Of a stretch of DNA of 64,000 nucleotides, positions 23,119 through 64,000 are shown in pieces; the stretch's first letter is position 1, and each line of letters begins with the position of its first letter. The position numbers and the translations under genes were made by a program. The DNA is taken from contig JACPDY010000002.1 of NCBI GenBank assembly GCA_016183775.1, forward strand, positions 16,060 to 80,059. Reading direction: 5' to 3'. The notes under the pieces were generated by a model, which was given only the letters and a program-made list of their open reading frames with translations, did not search any database and was not told the DNA's origin. The stretch is from Bacteroidota bacterium. Its GTDB lineage: Bacteria; Bacteroidota; Bacteroidia; JABDFU01.

Positions 23119-26100
23119 CTAAGGTGTACTTAAGTTAACATTTACACTACACCCATTCTTATCTTTAATATTTATTGTGTATGTACCTGGACAAAGCTGA
23201 TTCTTGTATCTGTTAACATAACCATCGAGCCAGGAATAACTGTAAGGACTTGTACCACCCATAGCATTTACCATTATCCATTGTTTACAACCGCATCCTG
23301 TGCAGCCTGCAGTTCCTTTGACAATTTGTCCAACTACTGCGGAAGGAGAAATTATTGCAGCCATTGACATTGCGCTGCAACCTTTAGAATCAGTAATGGT
23401 TACTGAATAATTACCTGCTATAAGACCCGTTGCTGTTTGTGTTGTTTGTCCGTTACTCCAGCTGTAGGTATATGGAACTGTGCCACTACCCGGACTCGCA
23501 AGTATAGTACCATTGGAACTTCCATTACAGGTTATATTGCCAGATGAAGTGGTTAAAGTAACGGACGGATTGACTGTTACTACAGCTGTTGAAGTTGATG
23601 TATTTCCACCGGCATCTTTTATTGTTACTGTATAAGTTGTGGTTGACGCAGGACAAGGATTTATATTTTGTGTTGTTGCACTATTGCTCCAGGTATAAGT
23701 ATAAGGAGTGGTTCCGCCCGCACCGTTCGAAGTTATTGTTGCGCATGCACCCGGACACACTGAACCACCAACGGCACTTACCGTAGGAGCATTGCAATTA
23801 ACTACCACTATACTTTGGGTTACAGAATTATTACATGTTCCGTCTTTGACTGTATGAACAACACTGTAAGTTCCTGCAGTTAAAAAAGTATAAGAAAAAT
23901 TAGTGGTGGTACCGCTTACGTTTGCAGGGGCTATAGTTGAAATTAGCCAGGTATACGTTATGCCTGAACCGGGAGGAGTACCGGTATTTGTAAAATTCAC
24001 TTTAGTTCCAACACATGCCGTGGACACATTAAATGTTGCCGAAACGGGAGAGCTTCCTGTAATTGTAAAAGTCTTAGTAATGACACAACCCAAATTATCG
24101 GAAATAGTTAATGTATAACTTCCCGCAACCGCGTTTGAAAGTTCGGAACCATCTAAAATACCGATCTTGGTGCCTGTTCCTGTTTGACCTGTATTCCAGG
24201 TATAATAGTAAGGAGCGGTTCCACCGACAATGGTCGCATAAGCCCTTCCGCTTGTGGTACAACTGATATTTGCACTAGCAGTATTTACAGTTGGCGATGA
24301 TTTAGTAACTAAAACAACTGTGGTTCTTATGGTACATCCTGTATTATCTGTCACAGAACACGTATATGTACCAGGAGGAATACCCGTTGCATTTGCACCC
24401 GTCTGACCCGAAGGAGACCACAAATACGTATATGGACCTGTTCCGCCTGTAACTACCACTCCTGCAGTTCCATTTGGCGCCCCCGGACATGCCGGGTTGA
24501 TAGAAGTGGTCGTTAATGTTAGGCCTGTTGAAGTTTCTATAGCAACGGTCGTTACATTAAAACCTCCATTACATCCGTTAACATCAGTCACGGCAACCGT
24601 ATAAATACCCGGAGACAAACCTGTTGCCGTTTGCCCCGTTTGGCCAGATGGATTCCACAGGAAACTGTATGGGCCAGTTCCACCGGCTACCGAAACTGTG
24701 GCAGTTCCATTGTTACCGGCACCACAACTAAGGGGCGTTGGATTAACGCTCAAAGTTAACAGCGGCTGACAATTAACAACATTGAATTGAATTGATGCAA
24801 CAAAGCCATCACCGCAGGCAAGTACCTCGCCCGATATGCCTAATGCCACATCATATACAGTATCAGCGGTTGCGACAGATGCCACATAATTCAATGTTGA
24901 ATCGAATTTGCTCACTCCGTCATGTGTCCCAACATATACATTCCCACATCCATCGATTACTATGCCACTGTTATTACCAACACTTCCATTACTTACAGTT
25001 ACAGAAGAAATTGCAGCACCTGTATTGATGTTTCGTTTATAAATAGTTTTACCATCATAGGTCATGATAAACTTATTGTTTACAGTTATACCATTGAAGC
25101 CCTGGAAAGAGCCTGCAGCTTGTACATAATTCATACCGGCCGATTCCGCGATCAGGTAACCATTACCTACATTATAAATCGGAGCAATGGCAGGAGTTGA
25201 AGCCGCCAGAACATTTCCTGCTGCTGTTGCTACGCCAAGCCAGTCAACATGCAGACTGTAGATCCGGCCCGTAAAAGAAACCGCTAAAGACCTTAATTCA
25301 CGGCCTGTACCCGTACCCCCCACAGGCTGGATGCCTGTCACAGCACCGGTAACCGGGTTTACGCGTCCGATGCCTCCTGTTCCATCAAAATATCCTCCGA
25401 CAATTAAATTATTATAATTGCAATCGAATCCGATCCGCCAAAGTTCAGTACGGTCCCGAACCAATCCTGTGGAAGAAAAATAAACTAAATTCCCGGATGG
25501 ATCTACTTTAACAATTCCTCCCTTCCAGGCCCCGTCACACAGGTAGGTATTTCCATTTAAGTCGAGTGCAAAATCACCATAATATGATGCACCTAATTGA
25601 ACCGGAGTAAAAGTCCACAGAAGAGTGCCAGCAGAAGAATATTTCTTTAATTGATAGGGGCCCTGCCATCCGTCACCACCACCATAAATAAAGACATTCC
25701 CTGCCGCATCACGCGCAATATCATACGCCTGATTTGCAATGGTCATTGCAGGATTGGCTGTCCAGGGGTCAATGACCACTGCTTTTGACCTGTCATAGCC
25801 ATCAAGTCTGAAAGCCACGTTATTGCCATCCAAAACGGAGAATTGTGAATTGATCATCCCGCCATTTTCCGAATAATATGTTTGTGGCGCATGGTCAATT
25901 ATTGTTCCTGCCAAACCATTTATATGTATATTCCCATCTCTATCCAGGGAAACTTCTTTTGCATTACCATAGTGCATTCTGATGTCAGAAGGATCAGCTC
26001 CGGGATGCAGAATAAAAGAATATTTTATTCCTGTTGTTTTATGAAACACATACTCTACATCAATTCCCGGATAAAGATCTTTATAAGTGAGCTTCTTATA

Positions 26101-26586
26101 TCCGAAAGCCTTAACCGTTTTATTATTTTCTTTGAAACCATAAGTAAAATAATCGGCGGAAATATCTTCAGCAACAATTTTTACATCCGGATTTGCATTT
26201 AGCCAGTTCATGTCAAGGCCGTAAACTTTACCTCTTCTCTCTTTCATCTTCCCTCTTTCGGCAGCTTCTTCATTCTGATCTAAAATATTTTCTGTACTAA
26301 TTTTTTCAATACTCTCCGAAGACTCCTTCTCATACAATTTATAGGTCAACCCCTTTGATGTAAAATATGCCTCTATGCCATTACTATTTATGCCATATTT
26401 TATTTCGACTCCTTTCTCTAAACCATTTTCAAAAAACTGTCCGCTGTTCTCAATAAAAACATTGTCTTTAAAAATATCCCTTCTTATCCAATCTGATGAA
26501 TAGCTTCCAGAAACCCGGCTGAACGACTGAGCGCACAAGAATTGACCTGATAGCAAAACCAAAATGGCAAGTGTTCGTATTTTCAT
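23119..26586 (-). CDS. giant secreted SBBP beta-propeller / SprB-repeat surface protein ending in the conserved Cys-rich C-terminal module (paralog 1)
   Basis: Signal peptide MKIRTLAILVLLSGQFLCAQ. N-terminal domain (ENSGQ...HPGADP) shared with the paralogs. SBBP repeats (W-T-YGG...D.G..I..D..GN.Y..G.T.S.(D/N)FP). More than 8 SprB-type ~75-aa repeats (C-G--NG-A-V-V-GGTGPY-Y-W...G-YTV-VTD-NGC). C-terminal module CTGCGCKQWIM...NLSTP-stop. Confidence 0.75.
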   Translation of the reverse strand: MKIRTLAILVLLSGQFLCAQSFSRVSGSYSSDWIRRDIFKDNVFIENSGQFFENGLEKGVEIKYGINSNGIEAYFTSKGLTYKLYEKESSESIEKISTENILDQNEEAAERGKMKERRGKVYGLDMNWLNANPDVKIVAEDISADYFTYGFKENNKTVKAFGYKKLTYKDLYPGIDVEYVFHKTTGIKYSFILHPGADPSDIRMHYGNAKEVSLDRDGNIHINGLAGTIIDHAPQTYYSENGGMINSQFSVLDGNNVAFRLDGYDRSKAVVIDPWTANPAMTIANQAYDIARDAAGNVFIYGGGDGWQGPYQLKKYSSAGTLLWTFTPVQLGASYYGDFALDLNGNTYLCDGAWKGGIVKVDPSGNLVYFSSTGLVRDRTELWRIGFDCNYNNLIVGGYFDGTGGIGRVNPVTGAVTGIQPVGGTGTGRELRSLAVSFTGRIYSLHVDWLGVATAAGNVLAASTPAIAPIYNVGNGYLIAESAGMNYVQAAGSFQGFNGITVNNKFIMTYDGKTIYKRNINTGAAISSVTVSNGSVGNNSGIVIDGCGNVYVGTHDGVSKFDSTLNYVASVATADTVYDVALGISGEVLACGDGFVASIQFNVVNCQPLLTLSVNPTPLSCGAGNNGTATVSVAGGTGPYSFLWNPSGQTGQTATGLSPGIYTVAVTDVNGCNGGFNVTTVAIETSTGLTLTTTSINPACPGAPNGTAGVVVTGGTGPYTYLWSPSGQTGANATGIPPGTYTCSVTDNTGCTIRTTVVLVTKSSPTVNTASANISCTTSGRAYATIVGGTAPYYYTWNTGQTGTGTKIGILDGSELSNAVAGSYTLTISDNLGCVITKTFTITGSSPVSATFNVSTACVGTKVNFTNTGTPPGSGITYTWLISTIAPANVSGTTTNFSYTFLTAGTYSVVHTVKDGTCNNSVTQSIVVVNCNAPTVSAVGGSVCPGACATITSNGAGGTTPYTYTWSNSATTQNINPCPASTTTYTVTIKDAGGNTSTSTAVVTVNPSVTLTTSSGNITCNGSSNGTILASPGSGTVPYTYSWSNGQTTQTATGLIAGNYSVTITDSKGCSAMSMAAIISPSAVVGQIVKGTAGCTGCGCKQWIMVNAMGGTSPYSYSWLDGYVNRYKNQLCPGTYTINIKDKNGCSVNVNLSTP

Positions 26587-26613
26587 TGTCCAAAATCTCT
26601 TTCGTACTAATAT

Positions 26614-29592
26614 CTATGGTGTACTTAAATTAACATTTACACTACACCCGTTCTTATCTTTTATATTTACAGTATAATTACCCGGACAAAGTCGGTTTTT
26701 GTATCTGTTAACATAACCATCAGGCCAGGAATATGAGTATGGGCTCGTCCCACCTGAGGCAGTTACCATTATCCATTGTTTACAGCCGCAACCTGAACAA
26801 ACTGCTGTTCCCTTGGCAAATTGACCGACCATGGGCGGTGATACAATTACAGTGGCTGTAGCGGTAGATGTAGCTCCTCCCGAATCAGTTATTTTAACTG
26901 TATAGGTTGTTGTCACTGTTGGGCAGGGATTTATGTTTTGTGTTGTAGCGCCAGTGCTCCACGAATAAATATAAGGTGCTGTGCCTCCCGTTACATTTGA
27001 CTTTACCATCGCACAAGATCCTGAACAAAGGATTGTATCTGAGGCATATGCTGTAATACCTCCGCAGGATGGACCGGTGATTGTAAATGTTGCTGTTTGT
27101 GTTTGATTACAATTACTGGTTGCTGTTACTGTATAGGTTCCGGCGCATAAACCCGAAATGCTGCTTGTGGCTGACGTAACGCCGGATTGTATTGTTCCAT
27201 TACTCCATTTATAAGTGTAAGGATCAACGCCGCAGCTTAATGAAACAGTAGCCGTGCCATTGCAAACACACGAAGTTGAATTAGCCTGGCTTTTGTTAAT
27301 TGTGGATGGTATCGGGCTGAATTTGTAAATAGCAAATCCGGCATCACCATTTCCTGTGTTATCAAAATAGGCTCCACCGCCCGGGTTTACAAATTGGGTG
27401 TTTACGGTAGTGAGGTCGCTGCTGGAGCCGATAAAGATATTACTTTGATTGTCAATAACAATTGTTGGTACGTGATCGTCCCCATCTCCTTTAATGTAGG
27501 TTGCCCAAAGTATATTATCCATTGGGGTGAATTTGATCAGGAATAAATTACATTGCCAGGATATCCCTTTGGGATTTGAAAATGTTGACTGAAAATATCC
27601 CATATTGCAAGCATCTTGCTTAGTGAAAAGATTAGGAGATCTTGTGGAGAAGCTTAGATAAACGTTTCCGCAAATATCCGTGTTCAGATATGGGGACCAA
27701 TAAGACTGCGTCGCTTCCTGGCCGGATCCGCCAAAAAGAGTTGCCCACAAAAGTGATTCCGAACTACTGAATTTAAGAATGTAAACGTCAGACCTTCCTC
27801 CGGGTGTATTATCATAATATCCGCCCGAATTTAATGTGTTAAAATCTGTCGGTTGAACGACGCCTCCGCTCATTGAAGTGGAACCAGCCACATAAAGATT
27901 CCCATTCGCATGTTTCAATAAATAGCCTCCCATTTCATCTCCCGATCCTCCGTAATAGGTTGACCATAGAAGCAGATAGGAAGCACTAAACTTAAGAATA
28001 AAACAATCTGATGATCCATTCAGCGTATTATCGAAATAACCTCCTGAATTTAACGTAGGCAGATTAGTAGAATATGTCATACCCGATATGTAAATAGTTC
28101 CTGCACCATCACAAATAATGGACCAAGGGTCTTCATATCCCGTCCCACCAAAGTAGGTGGACCACAGAATCGCATTCGCTGCATTAAACTTCACAATGAA
28201 AAGATCATTGCTCCCCGCATTTGCATTATCAAAATATCCTCCCGAATTTACAAGCGGCAAATCAGCCGAATTGGTTAAGCCTGTTACATAAATTTGGCCG
28301 CTGCCATCTGTTGTTATCGATTTGCAGGTTTCCATAACAGTACCTCCATAGTAGGTTCCCCATTGCCTTACCCCTGATAAATTGAATTTAATTATAAAAC
28401 CATCGGAAGATCCGCCAATTGCATTGTCAAAGTAGCCCGTAGAAGCCTGTACGGGAAAATTCGCAGACCGGGTGGTTCCTGCAATGTATAAATTATCAGA
28501 AATATCGCAGACCATGCTGAATGGATAATCATAGGCTGAGCCCCCATAATAAGTTGCCCACAACAAAACACCTGCATTAGTAAACTTAAGTATGGCCAGG
28601 TCAAGATTTCCGCCGTTGACAAGCTGCATATAATATGTTCCGGAATTGAATGTTGGAAATCCTAAAGATTGTGAATATCCGCATGTGTAGAAGTTTCCAA
28701 AACTATCCATTGTTGACGATGCAGCCCACTCCGCAAGCTCACCCCCGTAATATGTAGCCCATACAAGTTGGGGATCTATAATAATAGTTTGCGAGTTGGG
28801 GAATTCAGTATACGGAAGCTGAAAAGTAACCTCTACATTGTAATCATCAATTGGCTTTTTATTGAACCGGCTTTCTATTTTAGTTTTTTCATTTTGAATA
28901 TATGAATATGGCGCGTTTTCAGTTAATGTGCCAAGTTTTGTTTTTATCCGGATATCTCCATCAATTGCAAGCGGTTTTTCGCTTTCGTAAATAAGCTTAA
29001 TTTTATTTGGATCTGCGCCCGGATGAATAATAAAATCGTACTTCATTCCTTTTTTATCCGAACTATAAAACACCCAGTCAATTCCCGGATAAACATCTTT
29101 GATTATAATTTTTTCGTATTGATAAACATCATAAATACCTTGCGGACAATGCCCGTAGAAATAGTTTTGATGTTCTTTACTTTGACCTTCTTTAACAATA
29201 TTTTCACGATTAATGCTTGCGTCCTTTAAAAGAACATTTACCCAAGCCATTTCTGTTTTCGTGTTTTCTCCCGGCAAATGAAATTGCCCTGCTTTATTTA
29301 TTTCGTGTTCTTCCTTTTCATTCCTTTCTGATCTTACAAATACATAGGTGAGGCCCTTTTCGGTAATGTAAACATTCATGCCAGGCGCTTCAGCTTTGAA
29401 AAGCACAAAGGGAACTGCATTAAAATCTGTATTCATTATCTGGCCTTTGTTCTCAATAAATTTTACCGGCATGCTCTGCAATTGCTGCAGGGCAGGATCG
29501 TTAGCCCGAAATTCTCCCACTACATTTTCTGCAAAAAGTGAAATAGATAGTAAGAGTAAAACAGCAATAGTGATTTTAATTTTATCCAACAT
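26614..29592 (-). CDS. giant secreted SBBP beta-propeller surface protein with conserved Cys-rich C-terminal module (paralog 2)
   Basis: Signal peptide MLDKIKITIAVLLLLSISLFA; N-terminal domain ENKGQ...HPGADPNKI; many SBBP repeats; SprB-type repeats; C-terminal ...CSGCGCKQWIM...NLSTP-stop; 27 bp downstream of paralog 3 (tandem). Confidence 0.75.
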   Translation of the reverse strand: MLDKIKITIAVLLLLSISLFAENVVGEFRANDPALQQLQSMPVKFIENKGQIMNTDFNAVPFVLFKAEAPGMNVYITEKGLTYVFVRSERNEKEEHEINKAGQFHLPGENTKTEMAWVNVLLKDASINRENIVKEGQSKEHQNYFYGHCPQGIYDVYQYEKIIIKDVYPGIDWVFYSSDKKGMKYDFIIHPGADPNKIKLIYESEKPLAIDGDIRIKTKLGTLTENAPYSYIQNEKTKIESRFNKKPIDDYNVEVTFQLPYTEFPNSQTIIIDPQLVWATYYGGELAEWAASSTMDSFGNFYTCGYSQSLGFPTFNSGTYYMQLVNGGNLDLAILKFTNAGVLLWATYYGGSAYDYPFSMVCDISDNLYIAGTTRSANFPVQASTGYFDNAIGGSSDGFIIKFNLSGVRQWGTYYGGTVMETCKSITTDGSGQIYVTGLTNSADLPLVNSGGYFDNANAGSNDLFIVKFNAANAILWSTYFGGTGYEDPWSIICDGAGTIYISGMTYSTNLPTLNSGGYFDNTLNGSSDCFILKFSASYLLLWSTYYGGSGDEMGGYLLKHANGNLYVAGSTSMSGGVVQPTDFNTLNSGGYYDNTPGGRSDVYILKFSSSESLLWATLFGGSGQEATQSYWSPYLNTDICGNVYLSFSTRSPNLFTKQDACNMGYFQSTFSNPKGISWQCNLFLIKFTPMDNILWATYIKGDGDDHVPTIVIDNQSNIFIGSSSDLTTVNTQFVNPGGGAYFDNTGNGDAGFAIYKFSPIPSTINKSQANSTSCVCNGTATVSLSCGVDPYTYKWSNGTIQSGVTSATSSISGLCAGTYTVTATSNCNQTQTATFTITGPSCGGITAYASDTILCSGSCAMVKSNVTGGTAPYIYSWSTGATTQNINPCPTVTTTYTVKITDSGGATSTATATVIVSPPMVGQFAKGTAVCSGCGCKQWIMVTASGGTSPYSYSWPDGYVNRYKNRLCPGNYTVNIKDKNGCSVNVNLSTP

Positions 29593-29620: not shown

Positions 29621-32440
29621 CTATGGCGTACTCAGGTTAAGATTTACACTACACCCATTCTTATCAGTAATATTTACAATATAATTACCAGGGCAAAGAT
29701 GATTCTTGTATCTGTTAACATAACCATCAGGCCAGGAATATGAGTATGGGCTTGTGCCGCCTATTGCGTTTATCATTATCCATTGTTTGCAGCCGCAACC
29801 CGCACAGTTGGATGTTCCTTTGGTAAATTGTCCGGCCAAATTACACGTAACACAAGAATTAACTGTTATATATGCAATTTTTTTCAACGAATCACAGGAG
29901 GTATATAGTTTGACATCATACGTACCTGGAGTATTGTACACTATTCCTATTGGGTTTTGAGTTGTGGACGTATTAGGTGTGCCACCCGGGAAACTCCAGG
30001 AATATGCACTTCCGGATGAATTACAAACAGGATTTATGGAAGTATAATTAACTGCCTGGCCGGCACAAAAAGATGTTTGGCTGGCATTGAAATCCAAATT
30101 ACCTGCATTACCACCGCAAGTATTGATGTTTAATTTGGCTAAAGCAATATCATAACTTCCATCGCAGGTAGTTTGATATGCTCCGGCCGTTACAGGATAA
30201 CCGCAGGCTGTCATTACCACCATGTAAACAGAACATCCATCTATTGCAATGCTGCCACCTAATACATCACCAAAGACAGATTCATTATTAGCATTATTTG
30301 TACAGGTCAGGCCCATATAACCAGAACATATCAATGTTCCATTCGGATCAAAGGTTGTTATGAATTGATCTTCTGATCCCTTAAATGTTGTTTGATAGGC
30401 ACACGACGTGACCGGAAAATCAATTGAATAGGTATCCCCCGAAACGATCACATTATTATTTGCATCACAGGCAATGCCGGTACAATTTTCGTCATTGATG
30501 GACGTTGCAGTTGCTCCTCCTCCTAAATAGGTTCCCCAAAGCCGTTGTCCAATGCTGTTGAATTTAACAACAAAAATATCGTAATCCCACCCCCCCGGAC
30601 TATTAACAAGTGTAGTTTGAAAAGCTCCCGAAGTAGCAATAGGAGAAGGAGTTCCCCCTGCAGGTGTCGAGGTCAATCCTCCTGCAACTACATTTCCAAG
30701 TCCGTCCGTTGCCACACACTGTATCATCCCGGAATAATATGTAGCCCAAAGTCGGGCACCGGTCGGATTAAATTTAAATAAATAGCCTCTGGATATTGGG
30801 GCAGTTGTAAGAAACGCTCCAGGACTTACCGGAAAATTCACACCATTAGTCCGTCCTCCTATGTATATATCTCCATTCAGATCACAAGTAATGCCACCAC
30901 AGAGTTCTCCGCACGAACTGCCAACATATGTTCCCCAAACACGGGCCCCATTTGACGCGAACTTAACAACAAAAATATCGCTTTGAAGACTGCCGCCACA
31001 AAATCCACTATTAATTGCCGGCTGAAATGAACCGCCGGTTGAAATGGCAGTTGTGGATTTGGTATTCCCGTATAAATAAACATTACTTCCATCCGTTGAA
31101 ACATCATACCCCTTGTCCTCATCAGTGCCCCCATAATAAGTTCCCCAAAGGCGGATTCCTCCGGGATCAAATTTTACAAGAAAAGCGTCATTACCGGCTA
31201 CGGCCGCATAAGTACTTTGATGAACTACATTACCTGCTGTGGCTCCTGCAATGGCATTGGTAGAAAATGTGTATCCGGAAACCAGCACATTATTTAAGTT
31301 ATCGGTAGCAATGCCTGTTCCCCATTCACAACCTGAACCTCCGTAAAAAGTGGCCCATAAACGGACACCACTGCTATTCATTTTTACAACAAACGCATCA
31401 TTCAAACAGGCACCCATTACAGTTTGATGAGCGCCCGGTGATCTGGGAAAATTGGCGGAATATGTTTGTCCTGTAAAAAGCACATTTCCCAAATTATCTG
31501 TTGTTACTGACCCTGTCATTTCAGTGTTATTGCCTCCATAATAAGTTACCCAAGGGTCAACCACTAATGCGAAGGAAGGGTTAAAAGTTGAAAATGAAAA
31601 ATGAACAATCACATCACTATTTGACAATTGTTCGAGTCTATACTCTGATTTTATGTCAATAATTTTTCCGTTTATATTCTGGTAAATTTTGGGCAACTGT
31701 TCTGTTATTTCATGGACTGAATTCTTAATTCTTAATTCTCCTCCCGGACCTGCCGAAGGATTAATTGTCAATCCACCTGTTCCACGGTATTTTAATTTAA
31801 TATCATCAGGATTTCCTCCGGGATTAATAATGATATCGTATTTCAAACCTTTTGCTCTGCTTCCACCTGCATTGAGCGAAGCCGAGCCGTAATATTTCAC
31901 ATCAATATTTTTATAAATATTCTTTACTGTTACTTCATTGTAGGAATTAACACGGGTTATGCCTTGCGGGCATTGACTGAGATAGTAATTTGTATAGCCC
32001 TCAATCCTTTCGGCTGTTTCGGTACGGGCATTTAAATTGGCATTTACAAAGTCAATATCTATACGGTGTAATTTAATAATTTGTTTTTCATACAAGGCTT
32101 GTTTAAACTCCTGCTCTTCCTCTTCAGTAATCAGCCCGGTTTGTTCCTTTGCTTCAGCTTGCTCATCAATTTCATGCATTATTTCATTTGCATTACTTAA
32201 CACAAAGCTGAAGCCTGCTTTTCGTATGTATACATCCGCCCCGGCGGTCTCCCCTCTGAATAAAACATCAGAACAAAAATGTTGTTCCATATCAGCAATC
32301 TGACCTTTGTTCTCTGTAAAAAAAAGATCATTCCCTTTAAGAGATTGCGCATTCGTGTGGCTAACGAAAAAAACAACAGCGGCAAGGGGTATTAAGCAGA
32401 TGCTTCTGTTTATTTGTTTTATGTGGAGTTGTGGTATCAT
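29621..32440 (-). CDS. giant secreted SBBP beta-propeller surface protein with PKD-like domain and conserved Cys-rich C-terminal module (paralog 3)
   Basis: Probable start at Met 32440 (MIPQLHIKQINRSICLIPLAAVVFFVSHTNAQ signal). N-terminal domain ENKGQ...NPGGNPDDI, SBBP repeats, PKD-like segment, C-terminal module ...NLNLSTP-stop. The ORF can be extended to 32539, but that extension is a relic of another C-terminal module. Confidence 0.7.
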   Translation of the reverse strand: MIPQLHIKQINRSICLIPLAAVVFFVSHTNAQSLKGNDLFFTENKGQIADMEQHFCSDVLFRGETAGADVYIRKAGFSFVLSNANEIMHEIDEQAEAKEQTGLITEEEEQEFKQALYEKQIIKLHRIDIDFVNANLNARTETAERIEGYTNYYLSQCPQGITRVNSYNEVTVKNIYKNIDVKYYGSASLNAGGSRAKGLKYDIIINPGGNPDDIKLKYRGTGGLTINPSAGPGGELRIKNSVHEITEQLPKIYQNINGKIIDIKSEYRLEQLSNSDVIVHFSFSTFNPSFALVVDPWVTYYGGNNTEMTGSVTTDNLGNVLFTGQTYSANFPRSPGAHQTVMGACLNDAFVVKMNSSGVRLWATFYGGSGCEWGTGIATDNLNNVLVSGYTFSTNAIAGATAGNVVHQSTYAAVAGNDAFLVKFDPGGIRLWGTYYGGTDEDKGYDVSTDGSNVYLYGNTKSTTAISTGGSFQPAINSGFCGGSLQSDIFVVKFASNGARVWGTYVGSSCGELCGGITCDLNGDIYIGGRTNGVNFPVSPGAFLTTAPISRGYLFKFNPTGARLWATYYSGMIQCVATDGLGNVVAGGLTSTPAGGTPSPIATSGAFQTTLVNSPGGWDYDIFVVKFNSIGQRLWGTYLGGGATATSINDENCTGIACDANNNVIVSGDTYSIDFPVTSCAYQTTFKGSEDQFITTFDPNGTLICSGYMGLTCTNNANNESVFGDVLGGSIAIDGCSVYMVVMTACGYPVTAGAYQTTCDGSYDIALAKLNINTCGGNAGNLDFNASQTSFCAGQAVNYTSINPVCNSSGSAYSWSFPGGTPNTSTTQNPIGIVYNTPGTYDVKLYTSCDSLKKIAYITVNSCVTCNLAGQFTKGTSNCAGCGCKQWIMINAIGGTSPYSYSWPDGYVNRYKNHLCPGNYIVNITDKNGCSVNLNLSTP

Positions 32441-33054: not shown

Positions 33055-34611
33055 ATGAAAACAAATTCTTCCGAACTATTTGACACGATCAAATCTCTAA
33101 GCACACAGGAGAAAAAACGAATCAGAAAAGAAATGTCTCAAAATAACAAAGACAAAAAAACACTATTATTATATGATCTTATCGACAAACAAAAAAAATT
33201 TGACGATGCCGCTATTCAAAAAAAACTGGGTCATCCTAAATGGTACCCGCAGCTAAAAAAATATTTACTTGAACGTCTTACCGATAAAATATTCAGCGGA
33301 AATCCCGATAAAAAAAACTACACTTATGTGCTCAGGTTAATAACCATTGCCGAACAATTTTACGCGAAAGGATTGTTTAAACAGTCACAAAAGAAATTTG
33401 AACAAGCCGCCGACACCTGCAAAAAAAACGACTGGCTGGAATATATCCCGATCATCAATGCCAGGCTTAGCAATATTATAGGCACTAAACACGAGCAAAG
33501 AAAAAATTACATTTTTTATACAGAAGCCTACCAGGCTTTAAATCAATCCTATTTGGAAAAAAAATACTCGCTCTTGTTTCGCTGTTTGGAATTCTCAAAC
33601 AAAACAATGCAATCAAAACAACTTATAAACAATCTGAATATAAATGAATGCTTATCTGATGAAACGCGCCTGACTACCCTGCTTCAAAAACTGCATTACT
33701 ACCAATTTTTAGCTTCCTATTATAAAAACATTGAAATCAATCATAGCCAAAGCTATTTCTATTGCAAAAAATATCTCGATGTTGTAGTGAAAAAAAATCA
33801 GGAAGATGAAAATAAAAATGCGGCTTCCGAAAGCCAGAAAACTTCGCGCGAAAGAAATAATATTGTAGGCTTGCTTAATGTAATCGTCGCGGCAATTAAT
33901 GCAAATTTATTTGAAGATTTAAATGCCCTGTATCTATCATTCCTTGACCTGAAAAATAAGTTCAACATAAAGGATGATCACAGTCTGGCTCTCCTGTTCG
34001 AGGAAAGCCGTTTAATTCTTTACCTGTTAATTTCCACTTCTAATATCACAAGACGAGGATTGGAACATCCGGATTTCGATTTCTATCTCAGGCAATTTTA
34101 TCATAATGAAAATAAACTACCCCGGCCAACATCAACATCCTGCAATGAACTCATCGCTTTCACCTTCTTTATGAAAAAAAAATGGGCCGATTGCACCGCT
34201 TCAATTAATAAAATAGTAAATGACAACGAGATCTACAAAATTTATTCAGAAACATACGCTAACATACTTCTTCTCCGGCTATTCGTGAATTACGAAACAG
34301 GGGATCTTGATATCCTGGATTTCAACCTGAAGAAAACGGAACGATATTTCGGGAAGCGCTATTGGGCTTTGCCATACGAAAATCTGATATTGTCATTTTT
34401 CAACGAAATAACAATCAACGGTCAGGCTGCTCACTTCAACATATTGAAGAAATACAAGAGCCATCTGGATCACTTACTATTAACTGACAGATCATTCGCA
34501 GCAACGTATTTAGCTGAAAGAATATTTATTGATTTCGGCTGTTGGCTCGATTCCAGGATCACCAATAAGCCACTTAGAGATGTGTTAAAAGAAAAATGGA
34601 ATAAGAATTGA
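33055..34611 (+). CDS. ~517-aa family protein A (AT-rich, Lys-rich, predicted cytoplasmic alpha-helical); function unknown
   Basis: No signal peptide; MKTNSSELFDTIKSLSTQEKKRIRKEMS N-terminus shared with paralogs at 46514 and 53230; stop is 6 bp from the stop of the convergent giant gene 34618..37404. Confidence 0.6.
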   Translation: MKTNSSELFDTIKSLSTQEKKRIRKEMSQNNKDKKTLLLYDLIDKQKKFDDAAIQKKLGHPKWYPQLKKYLLERLTDKIFSGNPDKKNYTYVLRLITIAEQFYAKGLFKQSQKKFEQAADTCKKNDWLEYIPIINARLSNIIGTKHEQRKNYIFYTEAYQALNQSYLEKKYSLLFRCLEFSNKTMQSKQLINNLNINECLSDETRLTTLLQKLHYYQFLASYYKNIEINHSQSYFYCKKYLDVVVKKNQEDENKNAASESQKTSRERNNIVGLLNVIVAAINANLFEDLNALYLSFLDLKNKFNIKDDHSLALLFEESRLILYLLISTSNITRRGLEHPDFDFYLRQFYHNENKLPRPTSTSCNELIAFTFFMKKKWADCTASINKIVNDNEIYKIYSETYANILLLRLFVNYETGDLDILDFNLKKTERYFGKRYWALPYENLILSFFNEITINGQAAHFNILKKYKSHLDHLLLTDRSFAATYLAERIFIDFGCWLDSRITNKPLRDVLKEKWNKN

Positions 34612-34617
34612 ATTGCA

Positions 34618-42751: not shown

Positions 42752-42789
42752 GATTTTAATTGGTTGATAAATAATAAAAACAACCCCGG

Positions 42790-45661: not shown

Positions 45662-45702
45662 AAAATTGTTTCGTTAAGATTGTGAGATGAATTGATTTCG
45701 CA

Positions 45703-46513: not shown

Positions 46514-48070
46514 GTGAAAACCTACTCTTCCGAATTGCACGATCTTGTAAAATCTCTTAGCACGCAGGAGAAAAAGCGTATCAGGAAAGAAATGTCCCTT
46601 ACTAACAAGAATAAAAAAATAGTACTGCTATATGATATTATTGATAAACAAAATTTTTTTGATGAAGCTTTAATTCAAAAAAAATTAGGAAACCCCAAAT
46701 GGTATCCGGGTCTCAAAAAATACTTGCTCGAATACCTCACGGATAAAATATATTGCGGTAATTCCGATAAGAAAAGCAAAACCTATTTACTTAAATTAAT
46801 AACCATCGCAGAACAGTTTCACACAAAAGGATTAATTAAAGCGACCAAAAAAAAATTGATCCAGGCATTGGATCTATGCAAAGAAAATAGTTGGATAGAA
46901 TATGCGCCCATTATTAATTCTAAACTGGATAATATTATCGGAGAAAAAGCAGAGCAAAGGAAAAGTTACACTTTTTATACGGAGTCTTACCGGGCGTTAA
47001 ATCAGGCGTATTTAGAAAAAAAATATTCCATTTTATTCCGTTGCTTGGAGCATTCGGATAAGACAATACAGGCACCGGAATTTATGGCCGGCTTAAGCAT
47101 CGATGAATGTTTATCCGACGAAAAGCACCTGACAACTTTTCATCAGAAATTACACTATTATCAATTTTTAAGTGCATATTATAGACACATCGAACTAAAT
47201 TATTCTCAAAGTTATTTTTACGCTAAAAAAAGCATGGAAGTAATTCTTAAAAAAAATAAGGAAGAGGAAAATATGGAACCCTTCTCTCAGACACAACAAA
47301 ATGCCAGGGAAAGAAGTAATATGGTACAAATCTATAACCTGATCGCAGGTGCAATAAACGCAAATTTTCTTGATGATCTTTATACCCTCTTTAAATCTTA
47401 CGTTTTACTTCGAAGAAAGTTTAATATACGAAAGGGCCATATTCTTCATAAACTATACAATGAACTTTATCAATCTCTTTGTTTCCTTATTTCAGCTGTA
47501 AATATTACAAGGAGAGGGGTTGAGTCCCCGGATTTTCATTCCCACCTTCATCAATTTTATCTGATCGAAAAAAAATTACCTTACAACATATTAGTTGTTT
47601 GCAATGAAATGATATCCTTTTATTTTTTTATGAAAAGAGACTGGAATAATTGCACTTCCACCATTAACAAAATATTAAATGACAATGAGTTATACAAAAT
47701 TTATCCTGAAACATATGCCAATATGCTGCTTCTCCGGTTATTTGTAAATTATGAAACGGATGATCTGGATGTTCTAGATTATAACTTAAAAAGAACAGAG
47801 CGATATTTCGAAAAACATTATTCCGCACTGGGGTATGAAAAAATAGTCATAGCATTCTTTAATGAAATCGTCAATGATTTTTCAGGCAGAATAAAAACGA
47901 TGCAAAAATACATGGACAAAATAAATGAACTACTTTTAAATGATAGAAATTTTTCTTTTACCTATTTAACTGAAAAAATATTTATTGATTTTAAATGCTG
48001 GCTGGATTCAAAAATCACCAACAGGATGTTCACAGAGATTTTAAAAGAAAAAAAAAGAAATAAGAATTGA
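46514..48070 (+). CDS. ~517-aa family protein B (paralog of 33055..34611)
   Basis: MKTYSSELHDLVKSLSTQEKKRIRKEMS...; collinear similarity over the full length; stop is 8 bp from the stop of the convergent giant gene 48079..51138. Confidence 0.6.
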   Translation: MKTYSSELHDLVKSLSTQEKKRIRKEMSLTNKNKKIVLLYDIIDKQNFFDEALIQKKLGNPKWYPGLKKYLLEYLTDKIYCGNSDKKSKTYLLKLITIAEQFHTKGLIKATKKKLIQALDLCKENSWIEYAPIINSKLDNIIGEKAEQRKSYTFYTESYRALNQAYLEKKYSILFRCLEHSDKTIQAPEFMAGLSIDECLSDEKHLTTFHQKLHYYQFLSAYYRHIELNYSQSYFYAKKSMEVILKKNKEEENMEPFSQTQQNARERSNMVQIYNLIAGAINANFLDDLYTLFKSYVLLRRKFNIRKGHILHKLYNELYQSLCFLISAVNITRRGVESPDFHSHLHQFYLIEKKLPYNILVVCNEMISFYFFMKRDWNNCTSTINKILNDNELYKIYPETYANMLLLRLFVNYETDDLDVLDYNLKRTERYFEKHYSALGYEKIVIAFFNEIVNDFSGRIKTMQKYMDKINELLLNDRNFSFTYLTEKIFIDFKCWLDSKITNRMFTEILKEKKRNKN

Positions 48071-53229: not shown

Positions 53230-54780
53230 TTGAAAAAAAATTATCTGTTTACATTAATAAAATCTCTAAATATGTCGGAAAAGAGATATATAAAACTGTC
53301 ATTAAGGAAAAATGCAATTGGGGATAGCAGCAATTATCTTACACTCTTTGATATGATCGCTGCTCAAATAGAATATGATGAAAAAGCCATCAAAAGAGAT
53401 TTGGTAAATTATTCTTTGAAGAAGAATTTTGCCGTGACTAAGCTTTATCTATATCATTTGATTTTACGCACACTCAAAAATTTTCACTTTGAAACCTCTA
53501 CAGACATGTTGTTGGCAGATAAAATACAACAGGCTAATCTTTTACTTGATAAAGAATTATTCGATCAATGTGAAAATATTACTCTTAAAGCCTTATCAAT
53601 TGCTAACAAACACGAACTTAAGCTTAAGACCATTGAACTTTTGGATATTGAATTACGAGCACTTCAAGGACAACTGCAAATCAAAAAAATAAAAGAAAAG
53701 GCAGAGAAGTACTATAGAATGAAGCAAAAATTATGGGAACAGCAAGAACAGATATTTTACCTGCAAAAAATTGCGTATAATAATTTCGTCCAATTGAAAA
53801 CAGAATGGGTGACAGAACTAGAACAAAAAACCATTTTCAAGTCACCGAGTCAAATAAAAGAAGGAGATTTACTTTCCATACATGCTAAAATATTATATCA
53901 CCACGTCTGGAGCGGCTATTTATTCTCCGTAAATAAATCTGAAAAAACTTTCAAACATTTGATGAAGCTGGATATGTTATTTGACAAAAACCCGCATCTG
54001 ATCGGAGATTATTGTAATTTATACATTTCTATGCTAAACAATCTTAATGTTGTTTTATTGGGGCGTAATGATTTCAAGAGAGTTCTTCTTAACATAGAGA
54101 AAATGAAACTATTGAAAATGCGCTCTGTAGAAGGTCGAATACGTGTGCGCGAACGCCTGGTTAGTGCTGAAATGAGTTTGCATAAGCATACCGGAGAATT
54201 TGAGAATTCCCTGCCATTAGTGAATGAGGCAAACAAGTTGCTTGAAAACAAAAAACTGAGTGAGGTATATCGGATGGTATTTAATTTACACTTGTTTATT
54301 TACTATTTTGCGTTTGAGGAATACAAAACAGCACTTAGGTTTTTGAATCATTTCCTATCCGGATCAAGAAAAAATATTCGTAAAGATTTACATAAAACGG
54401 CACGCTTACTTTATATGATTACGCATTACAAACTTCGTAATTTTGATTATCTTGAATCATTCTTAAAAAACGCAGTACGATCTTTCAACAGCAATGAGGG
54501 CATGGATAAAATGGAAAGACTATTCCTTTCATTCTTCACTAATATTATTTTGATTACTAAAGAGGATGAAAGGCGATCACATTTTTTGACATTTAAATTA
54601 GCCCTCGAAAAACTTGAAAAGCAAAAAATAATGCTTGCAACGTATTTTTATAATTTCAATTTTTCTGATTGGGCAGAGGCAGAAATGACTAATAGAAAAT
54701 ACAAAGAATTTGTTTATGAAAAATTTCATCCGGACGCGTTGGCAAAATATACAAAACAGTTTAAAGCCCGAATAAATTAA
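53230..54780 (+). CDS. ~517-aa family protein C (divergent paralog of 33055 and 46514)
   Basis: LFTLIKSLNMSEKRYIKLSL... aligns with LFDTIKSLSTQEKKRIRKEMS; same length (516 aa), same AT-rich composition, convergent with giant gene 54844..57864 (63 bp apart). Confidence 0.5.
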   Translation: MKKNYLFTLIKSLNMSEKRYIKLSLRKNAIGDSSNYLTLFDMIAAQIEYDEKAIKRDLVNYSLKKNFAVTKLYLYHLILRTLKNFHFETSTDMLLADKIQQANLLLDKELFDQCENITLKALSIANKHELKLKTIELLDIELRALQGQLQIKKIKEKAEKYYRMKQKLWEQQEQIFYLQKIAYNNFVQLKTEWVTELEQKTIFKSPSQIKEGDLLSIHAKILYHHVWSGYLFSVNKSEKTFKHLMKLDMLFDKNPHLIGDYCNLYISMLNNLNVVLLGRNDFKRVLLNIEKMKLLKMRSVEGRIRVRERLVSAEMSLHKHTGEFENSLPLVNEANKLLENKKLSEVYRMVFNLHLFIYYFAFEEYKTALRFLNHFLSGSRKNIRKDLHKTARLLYMITHYKLRNFDYLESFLKNAVRSFNSNEGMDKMERLFLSFFTNIILITKEDERRSHFLTFKLALEKLEKQKIMLATYFYNFNFSDWAEAEMTNRKYKEFVYEKFHPDALAKYTKQFKARIN

Positions 54781-54843: not shown

Positions 54844-57800
54844 TCATGGAACCGTTAGATTAACATTAATACCACACCCATTTTTGTCTTTAATATTTAT
54901 AGTGTAATTGCCCGGACAAAGTTGATTTTTATACCGGTTTATATATCCATCCGACCATGTATAAGTATACGGAGTTGTTCCTCCCGTAGCCGTGGTCATT
55001 ATCCACTCCTTGCAGCCACAACCTGCACAGTTGGCTGTACCTTTTACAAATTGTCCAGCCAAAGCGGAAGGCGAAATTATTACAGCTGTTACAGTTGAGA
55101 TACAGCTGCCTGCATCGGTAACTGTAATTGTATAAGAACCGGCAGTTATACCATTGAATTGATATGTGGCGAAAGTGCTTATGGCACTCACTCCTGTACT
55201 CCAGCTATAAGTATAAGGTCCGCTGCCATTACTTATTGTTACTGATACAGAACCTGTTCCGACACTGCATGCCGGGTTACTTAAAACAGTGCTTTGAGCT
55301 GATAAAGAACACGCGCAGCTGTTAACAACAATATTTTCAGTTAACGAATCTTTATTACACCCGTCATCAACAACCAGTTTTACAGCATAGGTTCCGGCAA
55401 CAGCATATATAATACCTGAAGGATTTTGTTGGGCGGAAAAATTGGGTGTGCCACCTGCGAATGTCCAGCTATAAACAGGAACAGCACCGGAGCAGCTTGT
55501 GGTATAGCTTCCATTAAAATTTTGCGCTGAATTGGGACAAAAGCCGTTGTTGTTTGTAAATGCTATGGTGCCAACTGTTGGTGATCCGCACATGGAAGCA
55601 CATAGCGATGCGATCACAAGATCATAACTTCCGGCATTTGTCGTTTGAAATGCGCCCGGAGTTACAGGAAAAACGGGAAATGCATATCCCAATAAGAAAA
55701 CAGTGTTCTTATATATGGCTATACAATTACCGGGTAATGTTTCATCATCCTGCACAGAATTTCCCCCGACATAGGTTGAACAAATAAATTGCCCGTTAGG
55801 GTCGAAATGAGCAAAGAACAGATCTTCCTTCCCGCCGAAAACAGACTGGAATGCACAGGTGCCGATTGGCATATCAGATGAATATGTATCTCCTCCCAGA
55901 TAAATGTCATTATTGCCATCCGTAATTACGCCATTACCCTCTTCCCTGCCGGCAGTACCTCCATAATAAGTCGACCATAAACGATTCCCGGCCGGATCAA
56001 ATTTTATTATAAAGGCATCTGACGCTCCTTTCCGAATGATTTGAAACGCACCTGCCGTTACAGGAAGATCAGGAGAATAGGTCAATCCGGAAACTATAAC
56101 ATTCCCGATATTGTCAGTTGTTACACTTTGACCAAAGTCAAAATCGCTGCCTCCATAATAAGTGGCCCATAAGCGTCCGCCTGCCGGATTAAATTTGACT
56201 ATATACGCATCTTCCTTTATTCCGTTAAGCGCTAACTGAAACGCCCCTGCTGATACAGGAAAATTTGCCGACTTTGTTTGTCCCGTTATTATGAAATTCC
56301 CACTGCTATCTGTGCTTATCGCATTATACATATATTCATCGGCAGTTCCTCCATAATAGGTGGCCCATAAGCGGTTGCCGGCAGAATTAAATTTCACAAC
56401 AAAAGCATCCCACAGTCCGGCCTTTGTCAGCTGAAATGCTCCTCCCGTAACAGGAAAATTTGTCGATTCTGTACAGCCTGTTATAGCTATATTTCCACCT
56501 ATATCAGCAACTACCCCAACCCCATAATCTCCTGAACTACCTCCATAAAAAGTCGCCCATAAACGGGCTCCTGCAGGGTTAAATTTTACCACAAATGCAT
56601 CCGAAGTACCACCACCGGAAACACCCTGGAACGCCCCGGCCGTTACCGGAAAATCAGTCGAGTAAGTAATACCTGTAATGGATATTTCATTGCTCCCGCT
56701 TTTATCAACACAAATACCTCTGCCTTCTTCACCAAATGTTCCTCCATAATAGGTGGCCCATAAACGGTTACCTGCATTATTAAACTTTACCACAAAGGCA
56801 TTAGAAAATGACTTTTGAACTACTTGAAACGCCCCGGCAGTTACGGGAAAATCGAATGAAGACGTTGCCCCCGTAATCACTATATTCCCATTATTATCCG
56901 TGTCTATGCCCTGCCCTTGCTCAACATCACTGCCACCGTAATAAGTGATCCAGGGGTCAACCACCAAAGGAAATGAAGAATTAAAAATTGAAAATAAAAA
57001 ATGAACGATCACCTCATTGTTTGATAAATACTCAAGCCTGTATTCCGTTTTTACATCAATAATTTTCCCATTTATATTTTGATAAACCTTTGGCAATACT
57101 TCCGTCATTTCTGCAATGGAGTTTTTAATTCTTAATTCTCCATCTTTTATTTCCACCTCATCCGCTCCGCTATACTTTAACTTTATCTGATCCGGATTTC
57201 CTCCCGGTTTTACTATTATATCATATTTTAACCCCTGCCTGCGAGCCGGGGTGCCCTCCGGCTGGCAAGCCTGCCCTTTTGCCCCGTAATATTTCAAATC
57301 TATATTGTTATAAATATTCTTTATAATCACTTCATTATATGAATTCACTTTCAGTATTCCCTGCGGACAATGTGGATAATAATAATTAGAATAACCCTCC
57401 AACTGATCTCTCTCATATATCTCCGGGTCCCGGTTACAGTTTATAAAGTCAACATCCACACGATGGAAGTTCAGCTTTTGGTTTGCTATACGTTCTTGTT
57501 TTACATTCCTGACGGCAGCCTGGTTATTTTGCTCATCATTTCTATTGTTTCTTTCTATCTCTTCCTCCCGTTCGTCAGCTTCATGCATTATCTCTCCCAA
57601 ATCACCCAGCACATAACTGAGACCGGTTTTACGCAGATATATCTGTGCTTCGCCTGCATTCCCTTTGTACAGCACTTCGGGGCAAAGATTACCACCCATA
57701 TCAATTATCTGTCCATTATTTTTTGTAAAGCACAACCCATTTCCCCGCTCAGCCTCATGACCGCCCGGATGAGCAGTAGTAGTTCGCGCAGACTTCTCAA

Positions 57801-62928: not shown

Positions 62929-63030
62929 ACAAATAAAAATCACTACAATCTTAAAAAAGGAAAACCTTTATGGAACGGAACTAAGTCCATTTATACCATC
63001 GGTATTACTTTCTCCTTTGCCATCTAATGA

Positions 63031-64000
63031 TCACGGTACACTCAAATTAACATTTATATTACACCCGTTTTTATCTTTAATATTTACGCTATAATTACCC
63101 GGGCAAAGCTGGTTTTTATACCTGTTGCTGTAACCGCCCGGCCAGGTATAACTATATGGGCTGGTGCCGCCTGTTGCAGTTACCATTACCCATTCCTTGC
63201 AACCACAGCCGGTACAGTTGGCTGTTCCCTTAGTAAATTGCCCGACTAATGCACATCCACATGGGTTAACAGTAATATAATTGGCTTTTGTAACACTATC
63301 TTTTTTACAAATTGTGGTAACTACTAATTTAACATCGTGTGTACCGATACCGGAAAATGTTACGGTAGGCTTTACCGAGTCTGAACTTGCAGGATTGCCT
63401 CCGGCAAATTCCCAATGAAATTTATAGTCAGTGGTATCGCAGGAGTTATTTATTGCCGGAGTAAATTTAACGGGTGTATTTATACATGTATTGGTAGTGC
63501 CGGAAGTGTAGGTTAAATCGAGGACTTTACCTTCACAAATATTAGCGCATAATGAGGCTACAAAGGCATCGCTACCTCCGGAATAATACGGAACAAAAGG
63601 GCCGGCATAAGTTGTTTGGAAAGCACCTGTTGTTACAGGGTATCCGCCATCTGTAGCACCAGTGATATATATTGAATTACCATATACAGTTATTCCTCCT
63701 CCTGGTTCCAGATCATCCTCCCCTGTACCACCCATATATGTTGCACATAATTTTTTACCGGCCGGGGTAAATTTCACTATTAGCTGGTCTTCGATAAAGG
63801 GCGATCCGCTGGGATTTGTACTTGAGCCTCCGTTAAATACCGGTTGATAGCTGCAAACATCAACAAGCGAAGCGGTAGCAACATCTTCTCCCTCCATCAG
63901 TAAATAAATGTTATTATTTATATCCGTTGTAACGCTATTTCCAGTTTCATCAACACTTGTTCCATAAAAAGTCGCCCACAAACGGGTACCTGATGGATCG
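63031..64000 (-). CDS. C-terminal part of another SBBP-repeat secreted protein with PKD-like domain and the conserved Cys-rich C-terminal module (paralog 7; continues beyond the window)
   Basis: ...WATFYGTSVDETGNSVTTD (SBBP), PKD-like segment, C-terminus GQFTKGTANCTGCGCKEWVM...NLSVP-stop. Confidence 0.7.
   Translation of the reverse strand, partial: DPSGTRLWATFYGTSVDETGNSVTTDINNNIYLLMEGEDVATASLVDVCSYQPVFNGGSSTNPSGSPFIEDQLIVKFTPAGKKLCATYMGGTGEDDLEPGGGITVYGNSIYITGATDGGYPVTTGAFQTTYAGPFVPYYSGGSDAFVASLCANICEGKVLDLTYTSGTTNTCINTPVKFTPAINNSCDTTDYKFHWEFAGGNPASSDSVKPTVTFSGIGTHDVKLVVTTICKKDSVTKANYITVNPCGCALVGQFTKGTANCTGCGCKEWVMVTATGGTSPYSYTWPGGYSNRYKNQLCPGNYSVNIKDKNGCNINVNLSVP

Follow-up and report, generated by a model that had tools for sequence, protein, structure and literature searches.

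PorV recognises the type A C-terminal domains (CTDs) of the T9SS, the SprB repeat (PF13573) is an Ig-like repeat of Bacteroidota gliding adhesins, and RusR (BT2802) regulators control ribose-utilisation loci of Bacteroides. To our knowledge, three classes of T9SS CTD are known, which are unrelated in sequence; cargo recognition by the T9SS is unsettled, and what turns a C-terminal Ig domain into a signal is undefined. Beyond types A and B, a type C CTD (ChiA) is on record, CTD presence tracks the T9SS core genes, and every T9SS signal described so far lies at the C-terminus (PMC10202324). A PorP/SprF-like gene is often genetically linked to type B substrates (PMC12618676; PMC9143113), and RusR is required to activate its adjacent locus (bioRxiv 10.1101/574913).

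The window analysed here is a stretch of 64,000 nucleotides from a Bacteroidota bacterium (GenBank assembly GCA_016183775.1, contig JACPDY010000002.1). Eight minus-strand genes encode a common C-terminal 73-aa module that is followed at once by the stop codon, and the 3' ends that a first-pass annotation had given for them (the first coordinate of each line below) were all verified.

23119..23340, minus strand: module (73 aa plus stop) of a 1155-aa protein (23119-26586) with DUF7948, SprB repeats and PKD; 151 bits with the module HMM
26614..26835, minus strand: module of a 992-aa protein (26614-29592) with DUF7948, SBBP and SprB
29621..29842, minus strand: module of the protein at 29621-32539 (probable ATG start 32440) with DUF7948, SBBP and PKD
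34618..34839, minus strand: module of a 928-aa protein (34618-37404) with DUF7948, 6 SBBP and PKD
37410..37631, minus strand: module of a 553-aa protein (37410-39071) with an unassigned N-terminal region and PKD, and neither DUF7948 nor SBBP
48079..48300, minus strand: module of a 1019-aa protein (48079-51138) with DUF7948, SBBP and SprB
54844..55065, minus strand: module of a 1006-aa protein (54844-57864) with DUF7948, SBBP, PKD and SprB
63031..63252, minus strand: module of a protein at 63031 to >64000, its 5' part past the window end, with SBBP and PKD

An alignment of the eight modules has 37 invariant columns out of 73, among them C13, C16, C18, C50, C64 and the terminal Pro, with column identity averaging 83%. 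By Pfam, the passengers are those first described, DUF7948 and SBBP propellers with one PKD-only protein (37410-39071). The module ends in a polar beta-strand (...N[LV]x[AT]P), and inspection of the C-terminal sequences bears out the claim that it has no hydrophobic tail. A TM-anchored sorting signal (LPXTG, PEP-CTERM, GlyGly-CTERM and similar) was considered and rejected, given that the motif, hydrophobic helix and basic tail are absent from the module.

The 3' ends of the eight genes are conserved as DNA as well. Binned by 30 nt, pairwise nucleotide identity averages 0.66-0.83 over the last 210 nt (seven bins), as against 0.25-0.41 upstream and 0.26-0.33 past the stop codon. This leap from ~0.3 exactly across the last ~210 nt, together with the tandem arrays in which the module genes stand, could reflect paralogs that recently recombined or underwent gene conversion, or a DNA or RNA element such as an antigenic-variation recombination cassette, rather than a selected protein feature. 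However, synonymous sites are nearly saturated across the window modules, with a mean pS of 0.68 (minimum 0.44) versus a pN of 0.14, background identity resumes directly past the stop codon, and the module is kept as protein, with 55-80% amino-acid identity, both in other MAGs and among metagenome proteins. Gene conversion or a DNA element is therefore highly improbable, being largely refuted by the pS and pN values, and the conservation of the module DNA is accounted for by amino-acid constraint. The extra DNA conservation pointed out in the first-pass annotation is real and sharply bounded, but it has no separate meaning at the DNA level.

Judged from profile comparisons, the module is a derived SprB-type Ig-like repeat and a sharply separated offshoot of that family. 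Alignment with the internal repeats of the same proteins by hhalign gives 99.1% probability (E 5.5e-19), and PF13573 matches the modules over model positions 17-37 with 17-28.6 bits, one copy attaining the 28-bit cut-off; the proposed derivation is upheld by both. The module shares the GGTxPYxYxW and DxNGC motifs of the ordinary repeat and its first and last Cys as a pair. It differs in that it is never internal or tandem and lies only at the exact C-terminus, adds three invariant Cys (CxxCGCKxW, LCPG), has a shortened and basic RYKN loop, and begins with an invariant GQFxKG and finishes with Pro. Its net charge averages +3, whereas that of the internal repeats is close to zero (-0.2). In the window proteins, the module HMM gives 149-155 bits to terminal copies and no more than 32 bits to internal SprB-like repeats, which fits the claim that the derived motifs are limited to the terminal copy. 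An exhaustive search with the module profile reaches 48,707 SprB-type proteins. With the module HMM, all 117 modules reach 90 bits or more, ~6,700 ordinary SprB-like repeats stay below 50 and none falls between, such that a 40-bit empty gap divides the two. Two internal repeats bear part of the extra-Cys pattern, as SCxC and LC[AP]G.

The 117 copies (102 unique) were found across all sequences retrieved, ~100 of them outside the window in a few related genomes, and the family is known only from a few uncultured genomes. Every copy is single and sits at the exact C-terminus (117/117), as had been claimed, and the search of related genomes with the HMM built from the module revealed no internal copies. 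The terminal Pro is present in all copies and the five Cys in 102/102 unique ones. The numbers per genome, ~37 in MAG-335 and ~20 in SJ452, are those usual for a sorting tag. Conservation in these proteins peaks in the module, which has 67-84% identity to the first window copy versus 24-65% for DUF7948 and 28-52% for the SBBP regions, and it is portable over unrelated passengers, which comprise DUF7948/SBBP propellers, Kelch propellers and the PKD-only protein. NCBI names these proteins only 'SBBP repeat-containing protein'. Sec-type signal peptides are predicted in 33 of the 35 full-length module proteins, with no general lipobox.

Homology to an ordinary stalk repeat might mean that the module is a mere structural cap, the stabilised last Ig repeat that ends a PKD/SprB stalk after loss of a CTD, with the proteins periplasmic or non-specifically released, for instance in vesicles. 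Extra disulfides would suit such a stabilising role, and the partial Cys pattern of the two internal repeats is in keeping with it. This explanation is nevertheless improbable, given that a cap has no need for 30 columns of at least 90% identity among 102 copies from three or more genomes, including the surface-type residues K8, K19, R44, N47 and D60 as well as the terminal Pro. Moreover, the module can follow a PKD domain with no SprB stalk, paralogs with type A or B CTDs do without such a cap, and it would be unusual for dozens of adhesin-like propeller-PKD proteins of 1000-1500 aa to be kept periplasmic.

Two other proteins in the window carry a canonical T9SS CTD.

13915..14853, plus strand: secreted protein with a type A CTD (PF18962)
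42080..42817, minus strand: small secreted protein with a type A CTD (PF18962 / TIGR04183)

The first of these is an indication that the organism uses the T9SS. Three type A proteins had been counted in the window; these two were confirmed, but the third (51294-53045) has no CTD match. The module resembles the type A CTD in being strictly C-terminal, in its size (both ~70-80 aa), in its predicted Ig-like beta-sandwich on Sec-exported proteins, in being attached to diverse passengers tens of times per genome, and in its occurrence on homologous DUF7948/SBBP passengers; neither has a linked cognate shuttle gene. Unlike type A tails, it is Cys-rich, ends in Pro, and has none of their PxP(N)P, GxY or K/R-rich terminal motifs. 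No T9SS CTD model in Pfam or NCBIfam matches the module, even at E<=10 for the isolated module, and in hhalign comparisons the probability is 7.3% for 36 type A tails and 0.6% for the type B CTD. By sequence, a type A or type B CTD is excluded, in agreement with the first description, and the HMM check yielded no full-length match to a C-terminal sorting-domain model of Pfam or NCBIfam. As regards the type C CTD, these libraries gave no module match beyond SprB, in so far as they include such a model.

The relationship to known CTDs is clearest from the passengers. For a passenger with DUF7948, SBBP and PKD, the C-terminus of the 120 best homologs is PF18962 (type A) in 62 cases, PF13585 (type B) in 15 and the module in ~33; the three are never combined. 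Similarity to the query passenger is comparable for type B-bearing paralogs (47-49%) and most module-bearing ones (44-55%). All three kinds of C-terminus coexist in one MAG, and P0217 and P0224 carry the type B CTD on homologous passengers in the same MAG as the module. The module occupies the place of the type A or B CTD on homologous passengers, to their mutual exclusion, a pattern likewise expected if the module proteins merely stay in another compartment.

Because the module is placed exactly where related proteins bear a known T9SS signal, it is a candidate for an undescribed class of that signal. With roughly even confidence, it may be regarded as a lineage-restricted, derived SprB-type Ig-like domain recruited as a T9SS C-terminal secretion and/or surface-anchoring signal, a CTD class beside A, B and C. 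The type C CTD (ChiA-like, cl41395) provides a precedent for a family-restricted T9SS signal outside types A and B. In short, a Sec signal peptide, consistent with the signal-peptide-like N-termini, would bring the protein to the periplasm; the passenger and module would fold, and the five invariant Cys may form disulfides. Two of them match the pair typical of SprB repeats; with three additional Cys, either one residue may remain without a disulfide partner or the group as a whole may coordinate a metal. As positional equivalence suggests, the T9SS translocon or a shared shuttle would recognise the folded basic Ig module, much as PorV recognises type A, and the protein would be displayed with the propeller head distal, the PKD/SprB stalk proximal and the module as the holding point.

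A basic module with an odd number of invariant Cys, extremely conserved on diverse passengers and unlike known CTD motifs, would also suit a terminal binding or docking domain for a common partner, whether dockerin-like, surface-glycan- or LPS-binding, or an odd-Cys intermolecular disulfide anchor, with export by another, unrecognised signal or route. Such a domain is rather unlikely as the explanation, since the domains that Pfam recognises in the module proteins are all propeller, PKD or SprB domains, with no other candidate secretion signal, and since the module lies exactly at the signal site of its paralogs in a system whose described signals are all C-terminal (PMC10202324). Nor was a recurrent partner gene found nearby: no secreted or outer-membrane neighbour of the module genes recurs among the window and neighbouring ORFs, and the cohesin/dockerin-like partner suggested earlier did not emerge. 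Any receptor or shuttle for the proposed T9SS signal would be shared and encoded elsewhere. PorP/SprF-like genes are absent from the window ORFs and from the 25 commonest families listed among 96 ORFs that neighbour the module genes at 56 loci, and no FxPNGDGxND-type (type B) motif occurs in ~450 kb of module loci. The type B CTD (PF13585 / TIGR04131, CHU_C) also follows SprB/PKD stalks on homologous passengers, but the module genes differ in having no adjoining PorP/SprF-like gene.

The sole recurrent neighbour of the module genes is a cytoplasmic family, F515, with three copies in the window.

33055..34611, plus strand: F515 copy 1, 518 aa, cytoplasmic, all-helical TPR protein, distant RusR/BT2802 relative
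46514..48070, plus strand: F515 copy 2, which shares 62% identity with copy 1; convergent with module gene 48079-51138
53230..54780, plus strand: F515 copy 3, convergent with module gene 54844-57864, full-length NF058569 match

Copy 1 is convergent with module gene 34618-37404 and divergent from 29621-32539. Copy 3 aligns over 2-493 with positions 2-500 of the 502 in NF058569 (BT2802 family; E 4e-35), although its 121.8 bits against a cut-off of 550 make F515 a distant RusR relative and not an equivalog. Like RusR, F515 matches this model over its full length and lies directly upstream of, and divergent from, the genes it putatively controls. It differs in being paired with adhesin-like genes rather than PULs, in its expansion to dozens of copies, and in a predicted fold nearest to the RRNPP TPR regulators. 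About 28 RusR-like TPR regulator genes stand in divergent pairs with module genes. A fuller model can be offered tentatively, with slightly less than even confidence: the module would be a fourth T9SS signal class that arose from a SprB stalk repeat and is read by a shared receptor or shuttle, possibly with attachment through disulfides or charge (CxxCxC...C...C, basic face), and each of the dozens of cargo genes would be switched by its own RusR-like TPR regulator.

Even if its role is merely docking or capping, the module represents an undescribed and definable domain family, although of narrower interest. If it is a T9SS signal, ordinary Ig repeats can turn into such signals de novo, and the SprB repeat with a small, fully conserved set of changes would provide a minimal contrast between 'stalk repeat' and 'signal'. 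In some Bacteroidota lineages, current CTD-based predictors would then overlook dozens of surface proteins in each genome, and the paired RusR-like regulators suggest a large repertoire of individually regulated adhesins.

Eight minus-strand proteins of the window end in the same module, a 73-aa C-terminal domain with five cysteines. The ORFs, their 73-codon ends and their alignment show that the first-pass annotation described the eight shared 3' ends correctly. The module is encoded by the last 73 codons of each ORF.

23119-26586, minus strand, module-bearing ORF
26614-29592, minus strand, module-bearing ORF
29621-32539, minus strand, module-bearing ORF
34618-37404, minus strand, module-bearing ORF
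37410-39071, minus strand, module-bearing ORF
48079-51138, minus strand, module-bearing ORF
54844-57864, minus strand, module-bearing ORF
63031 to beyond the window end, minus strand, module-bearing ORF

The eight copies share the same residue in 37 of 73 aligned columns, among them those of C13, C16, C18, C50 and C64 as well as the terminal proline, so that the five invariant cysteines, the position at the very C-terminus and the final proline are as first described, as is the lack of a hydrophobic tail. In many loci, the linker between a PKD domain and the module holds one or two extra cysteines (...C[GTV]xCNLxGQF, GCTLxAQY), with examples in the window at 34840-34860 and 63253-63270; the linker after an SprB repeat reads PP[AP]LxGQF and has no cysteine.

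The last ~200 nt of these genes had also been noted to be better conserved than the gene bodies. With the eight copies lined up from the stop codon, mean pairwise nucleotide identity reaches 0.66-0.83 in the final ~210 nt, versus 0.25-0.41 upstream of the module and 0.26-0.33 downstream of the stop, and the module is conserved far better than the passengers, the remainder of the proteins that bear it. It is extremely improbable that this 3' conservation stems from gene conversion or from an element at the DNA level, given that such an origin is contradicted by a mean pS among the copies of 0.68 versus a pN of 0.14; the return of identity to background directly past the stop also argues against it. 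Because pS is close to saturation and pN is so low, the DNA conservation carries no separate meaning. The copies are old paralogs, and purifying selection on the protein rather than recent gene conversion keeps them alike.

The module is homologous to the SprB repeat, the Ig-like stalk repeat of Bacteroidota adhesins, which also occurs internally in the module proteins. Its earlier description as a derived SprB-type repeat is upheld by hhalign, which matches it to the internal repeats of the same proteins with 99.1% probability (E 5.5e-19), by Pfam, which finds on it solely a partial SprB-repeat match (model positions 17-37, 17-29 bits), and by an exhaustive search of 1.8 billion representatives with the module profile. 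The last retrieved 48,707 proteins and is dominated by giant multi-repeat SprB proteins, such that it shows homology and does not enumerate the variant; the proteins at the top of the list have 30-87 matched stretches, some of which span most of the module. Aligned with the internal repeats, the module has the canonical cysteines of the repeat at C13 and C64 and three added ones at C16, C18 and C50, and its loop preceding LCPG is shortened to RYKN. A fold search with the module gave generic Ig-like matches alone, which do not distinguish a C-terminal domain from a stalk repeat. No solved structure is related in sequence, as a PDB sequence search matched only the GGTxPYxYxW motif of phage decoration proteins.

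The module is a discrete class, and strictly terminal. The module HMM scores the eight terminal copies of the window at 149-155 bits and each internal repeat at 32 bits or less. When all proteins retrieved were pooled and their roughly 6,800 SprB-like domains scored, no domain fell between 50 and 90 bits. At 90 bits or above there were 117 domains, with zero residues past the domain in 117/117; none lies at an internal position, the placement that the first-pass annotation had named as evidence against its proposal. Terminal proline and all five cysteines are present in each of the 102 unique full-length copies, which end in AP (60), TP (28), VP (9) or SP (5). Across these unique copies, 30 columns are at least 90% conserved, and the mean net charge of the module is +3, versus -0.2 for the internal repeats of the same proteins. 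A role as a mere structural cap is unlikely, since it is hard to square with about 30 near-invariant positions and an invariant terminal proline.

The HMM scores support the claim that the derived motifs are unique to the terminal copy, but two internal SprB-like repeats do share SCxC and LC[AP]G (residues 761-833 of 26614-29592 and 791-867 of 48079-51138). The other module motifs are absent from both, which score 13-18 bits with the module HMM and may be evolutionary intermediates. Separately, a degenerate module fragment, WYKNNLCPGSYIVNIKDKNGCSINVNETAL followed by a stop, lies within a 53-aa ORF at 534-608 of L056, one of 56 module-bearing loci from related genomes. It is the sole copy without the terminal proline and is probably a pseudogene remnant.

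The module was also compared with the known C-terminal domains (CTDs) of the T9SS. Searches with Pfam and NCBIfam models, as the first-pass annotation had proposed, gave no C-terminal sorting-domain match on the module, and the isolated module has no NCBIfam match even at E<=10. By hhalign, the probability is 7.3% for the module versus type A and 0.6% versus type B, with type A versus type B (42.7%) as the yardstick. A divergent type A or B CTD is ruled out by Pfam, NCBIfam and hhalign, in line with the first statement that the module lacks the motifs of both. The type B motif is absent from about 450 kb of related loci, and the searchable literature yielded no account of any CTD class other than A, B and C.

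The protein of 34618-37404, with its module removed, was used as query, and the best 120 passenger homologs were classified by their endings. A type A CTD (PF18962) ends 62 of them, a type B CTD (PF13585) 15 and the module about 33, and about 10 are truncated or unclear; no two of these endings occur in one protein among the 120. Homologs with a type B CTD share 47-49% identity with the query passenger, within the range of most module-bearing paralogs. In short, the module and the known CTDs are mutually exclusive at the same position on homologous passengers. Less probably, the module only docks or anchors its proteins and is no translocation signal, which would leave them without a known secretion signal.

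The three endings coexist within one genome: the type B proteins P0217 and P0224 share an NCBI accession block with the window proteins, and two other proteins of the window, 13915-14853 and 42080-42817, have type A CTDs. Given that CTD presence correlates with T9SS core genes (PMC10202324), all three endings in one genome would imply that the organism has a T9SS. Three type A proteins had been claimed for the window; these two stand, and no third was found. The protein meant may be the 583-aa secreted protein of 51294-53045 (minus strand), which has no family match and in whose C-terminus (...FTVERSGNGSNYDLVQTIKGAGNNTTKLEYELIDSKPLKGINYYRLKQTDYDGKHN) no type A CTD can be detected.

In NCBI, the window proteins are named merely 'SBBP repeat-containing protein'. 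The variant is present in only two species representatives in a one-genome-per-GTDB-species scan, JAEUTS01 (Bacteroidia MAG-335) with about 37 module loci and JADLGT01 (SJ452) with about 20, and a stop directly follows the module in 55/55 intact copies from these two. A JGI metagenome scan with exact peptide patterns gave one true further module. Therefore, the family is narrow in lineage and highly expanded per genome. JGI and Logan proteins include more diverged copies, and a word-indexed search with the module gave 11 proteins, short or partial.

Pfam finds DUF7948, SBBP, PKD and SprB domains on the window passengers. The passengers as a whole include DUF7948+SBBP propellers, DUF7948 proteins that lack SBBP, Kelch propellers that also bear PKD and SprB, and a protein with PKD only. 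This bears out the variety of passengers first noted, including SBBP propellers and a PKD protein, and adds the Kelch propellers. Of the full-length proteins, 33/35 have a Sec-type signal peptide at the N-terminus, in many cases with an A|Q site, and the two exceptions resemble mis-called starts. When 252 ORFs of the window and the 56 loci were clustered all against all, only two non-module families recurred, cut passengers in tandem arrays and F515, a ~515-aa family encoded beside module genes. No PorP/SprF or other recurrent outer-membrane family was among the 25 most frequent Pfam families of the remaining 96 ORFs, and a linked shuttle or partner gene was rejected on these two negative results. 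Four of the 96 ORFs have a thioredoxin fold by Pfam; one alone has a WCxxC motif, and it is not adjacent. P0224 has no informative neighbour on the 6.7-kb Logan contig that encodes it.

Taken together, the window and the 56 loci encode 28 copies of F515, of which 25 lie beyond the window, in L002-L051.

33055-34611, plus strand, F515 copy 1
46514-48070, plus strand, F515 copy 2
53230-54780, plus strand, F515 copy 3

F515 has no signal peptide and no Pfam or PDB sequence relative. It is all-helical, with a predicted TPR fold nearest the RRNPP regulators (Rap, NprR, PlcR), and it has a full-length, sub-threshold match to NCBIfam NF058569 'BT2802 family' (E 4e-35). BT2802 is RusR, a candidate positive regulator needed to activate the adjacent ribose PUL in B. 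thetaiotaomicron (bioRxiv 10.1101/574913). The missing signal peptide, the all-helical TPR architecture and the likeness to RusR and RRNPP proteins rule F515 out as a partner in secretion; by predicted fold and family match it is a probable cytoplasmic regulator. Among the 25 F515 copies with an upstream neighbour, 19 and a module or passenger gene are arranged divergently, 116-614 bp apart, and among the 22 with a downstream neighbour, 18 are convergent with a module gene. This gives the repeating unit [<- F515][module gene ->], suggesting that each adhesin gene or array probably has one dedicated transcription regulator. The pairing bears on expression, not on sorting.

Other genes of the window were annotated as well. 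The 583-aa protein of 51294-53045 is divergent from F515 copy 3, and a minus-strand cluster at 39167-46323 from copy 2. The cluster encodes an NAD_binding_4 reductase, an AMP-binding enzyme, a small type A CTD protein, an FGE-sulfatase-domain protein, a WbuX-like N-acetyl-sugar amidotransferase and a FeeM-type N-acyl amino acid synthase, and resembles a locus for lipid or N-acyl amino acid biosynthesis. Two plus-strand ORFs with a 4-nt overlap, 58025-59539 (N-terminal domain and start of UvrD_C) and 59536-60435 (end of UvrD_C and the tudor domain), make up a split UvrD/PcrA-type helicase; the split reflects either a frameshift in the gene or an error in the MAG assembly. Near the window start, a large serine recombinase (808-2499, plus strand; Resolvase, Recombinase and Zn_ribbon_recom) may mark a mobile element boundary.

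The fold and the parent family of the module are already known; the derived terminal class has no Pfam or NCBIfam model. The most economical reading, given about an even chance on the sequence comparisons, makes the module a C-terminal secretion or anchoring signal of the T9SS, of a new and lineage-restricted class. Such a signal would have evolved out of an SprB stalk repeat, would carry a disulfide pattern of its own, would be recognized by the T9SS and would anchor its passengers at the cell surface. Confined to uncultured genomes, the module makes a clean, sharply bounded candidate for a T9SS signal of a new class, with an origin that can be traced.
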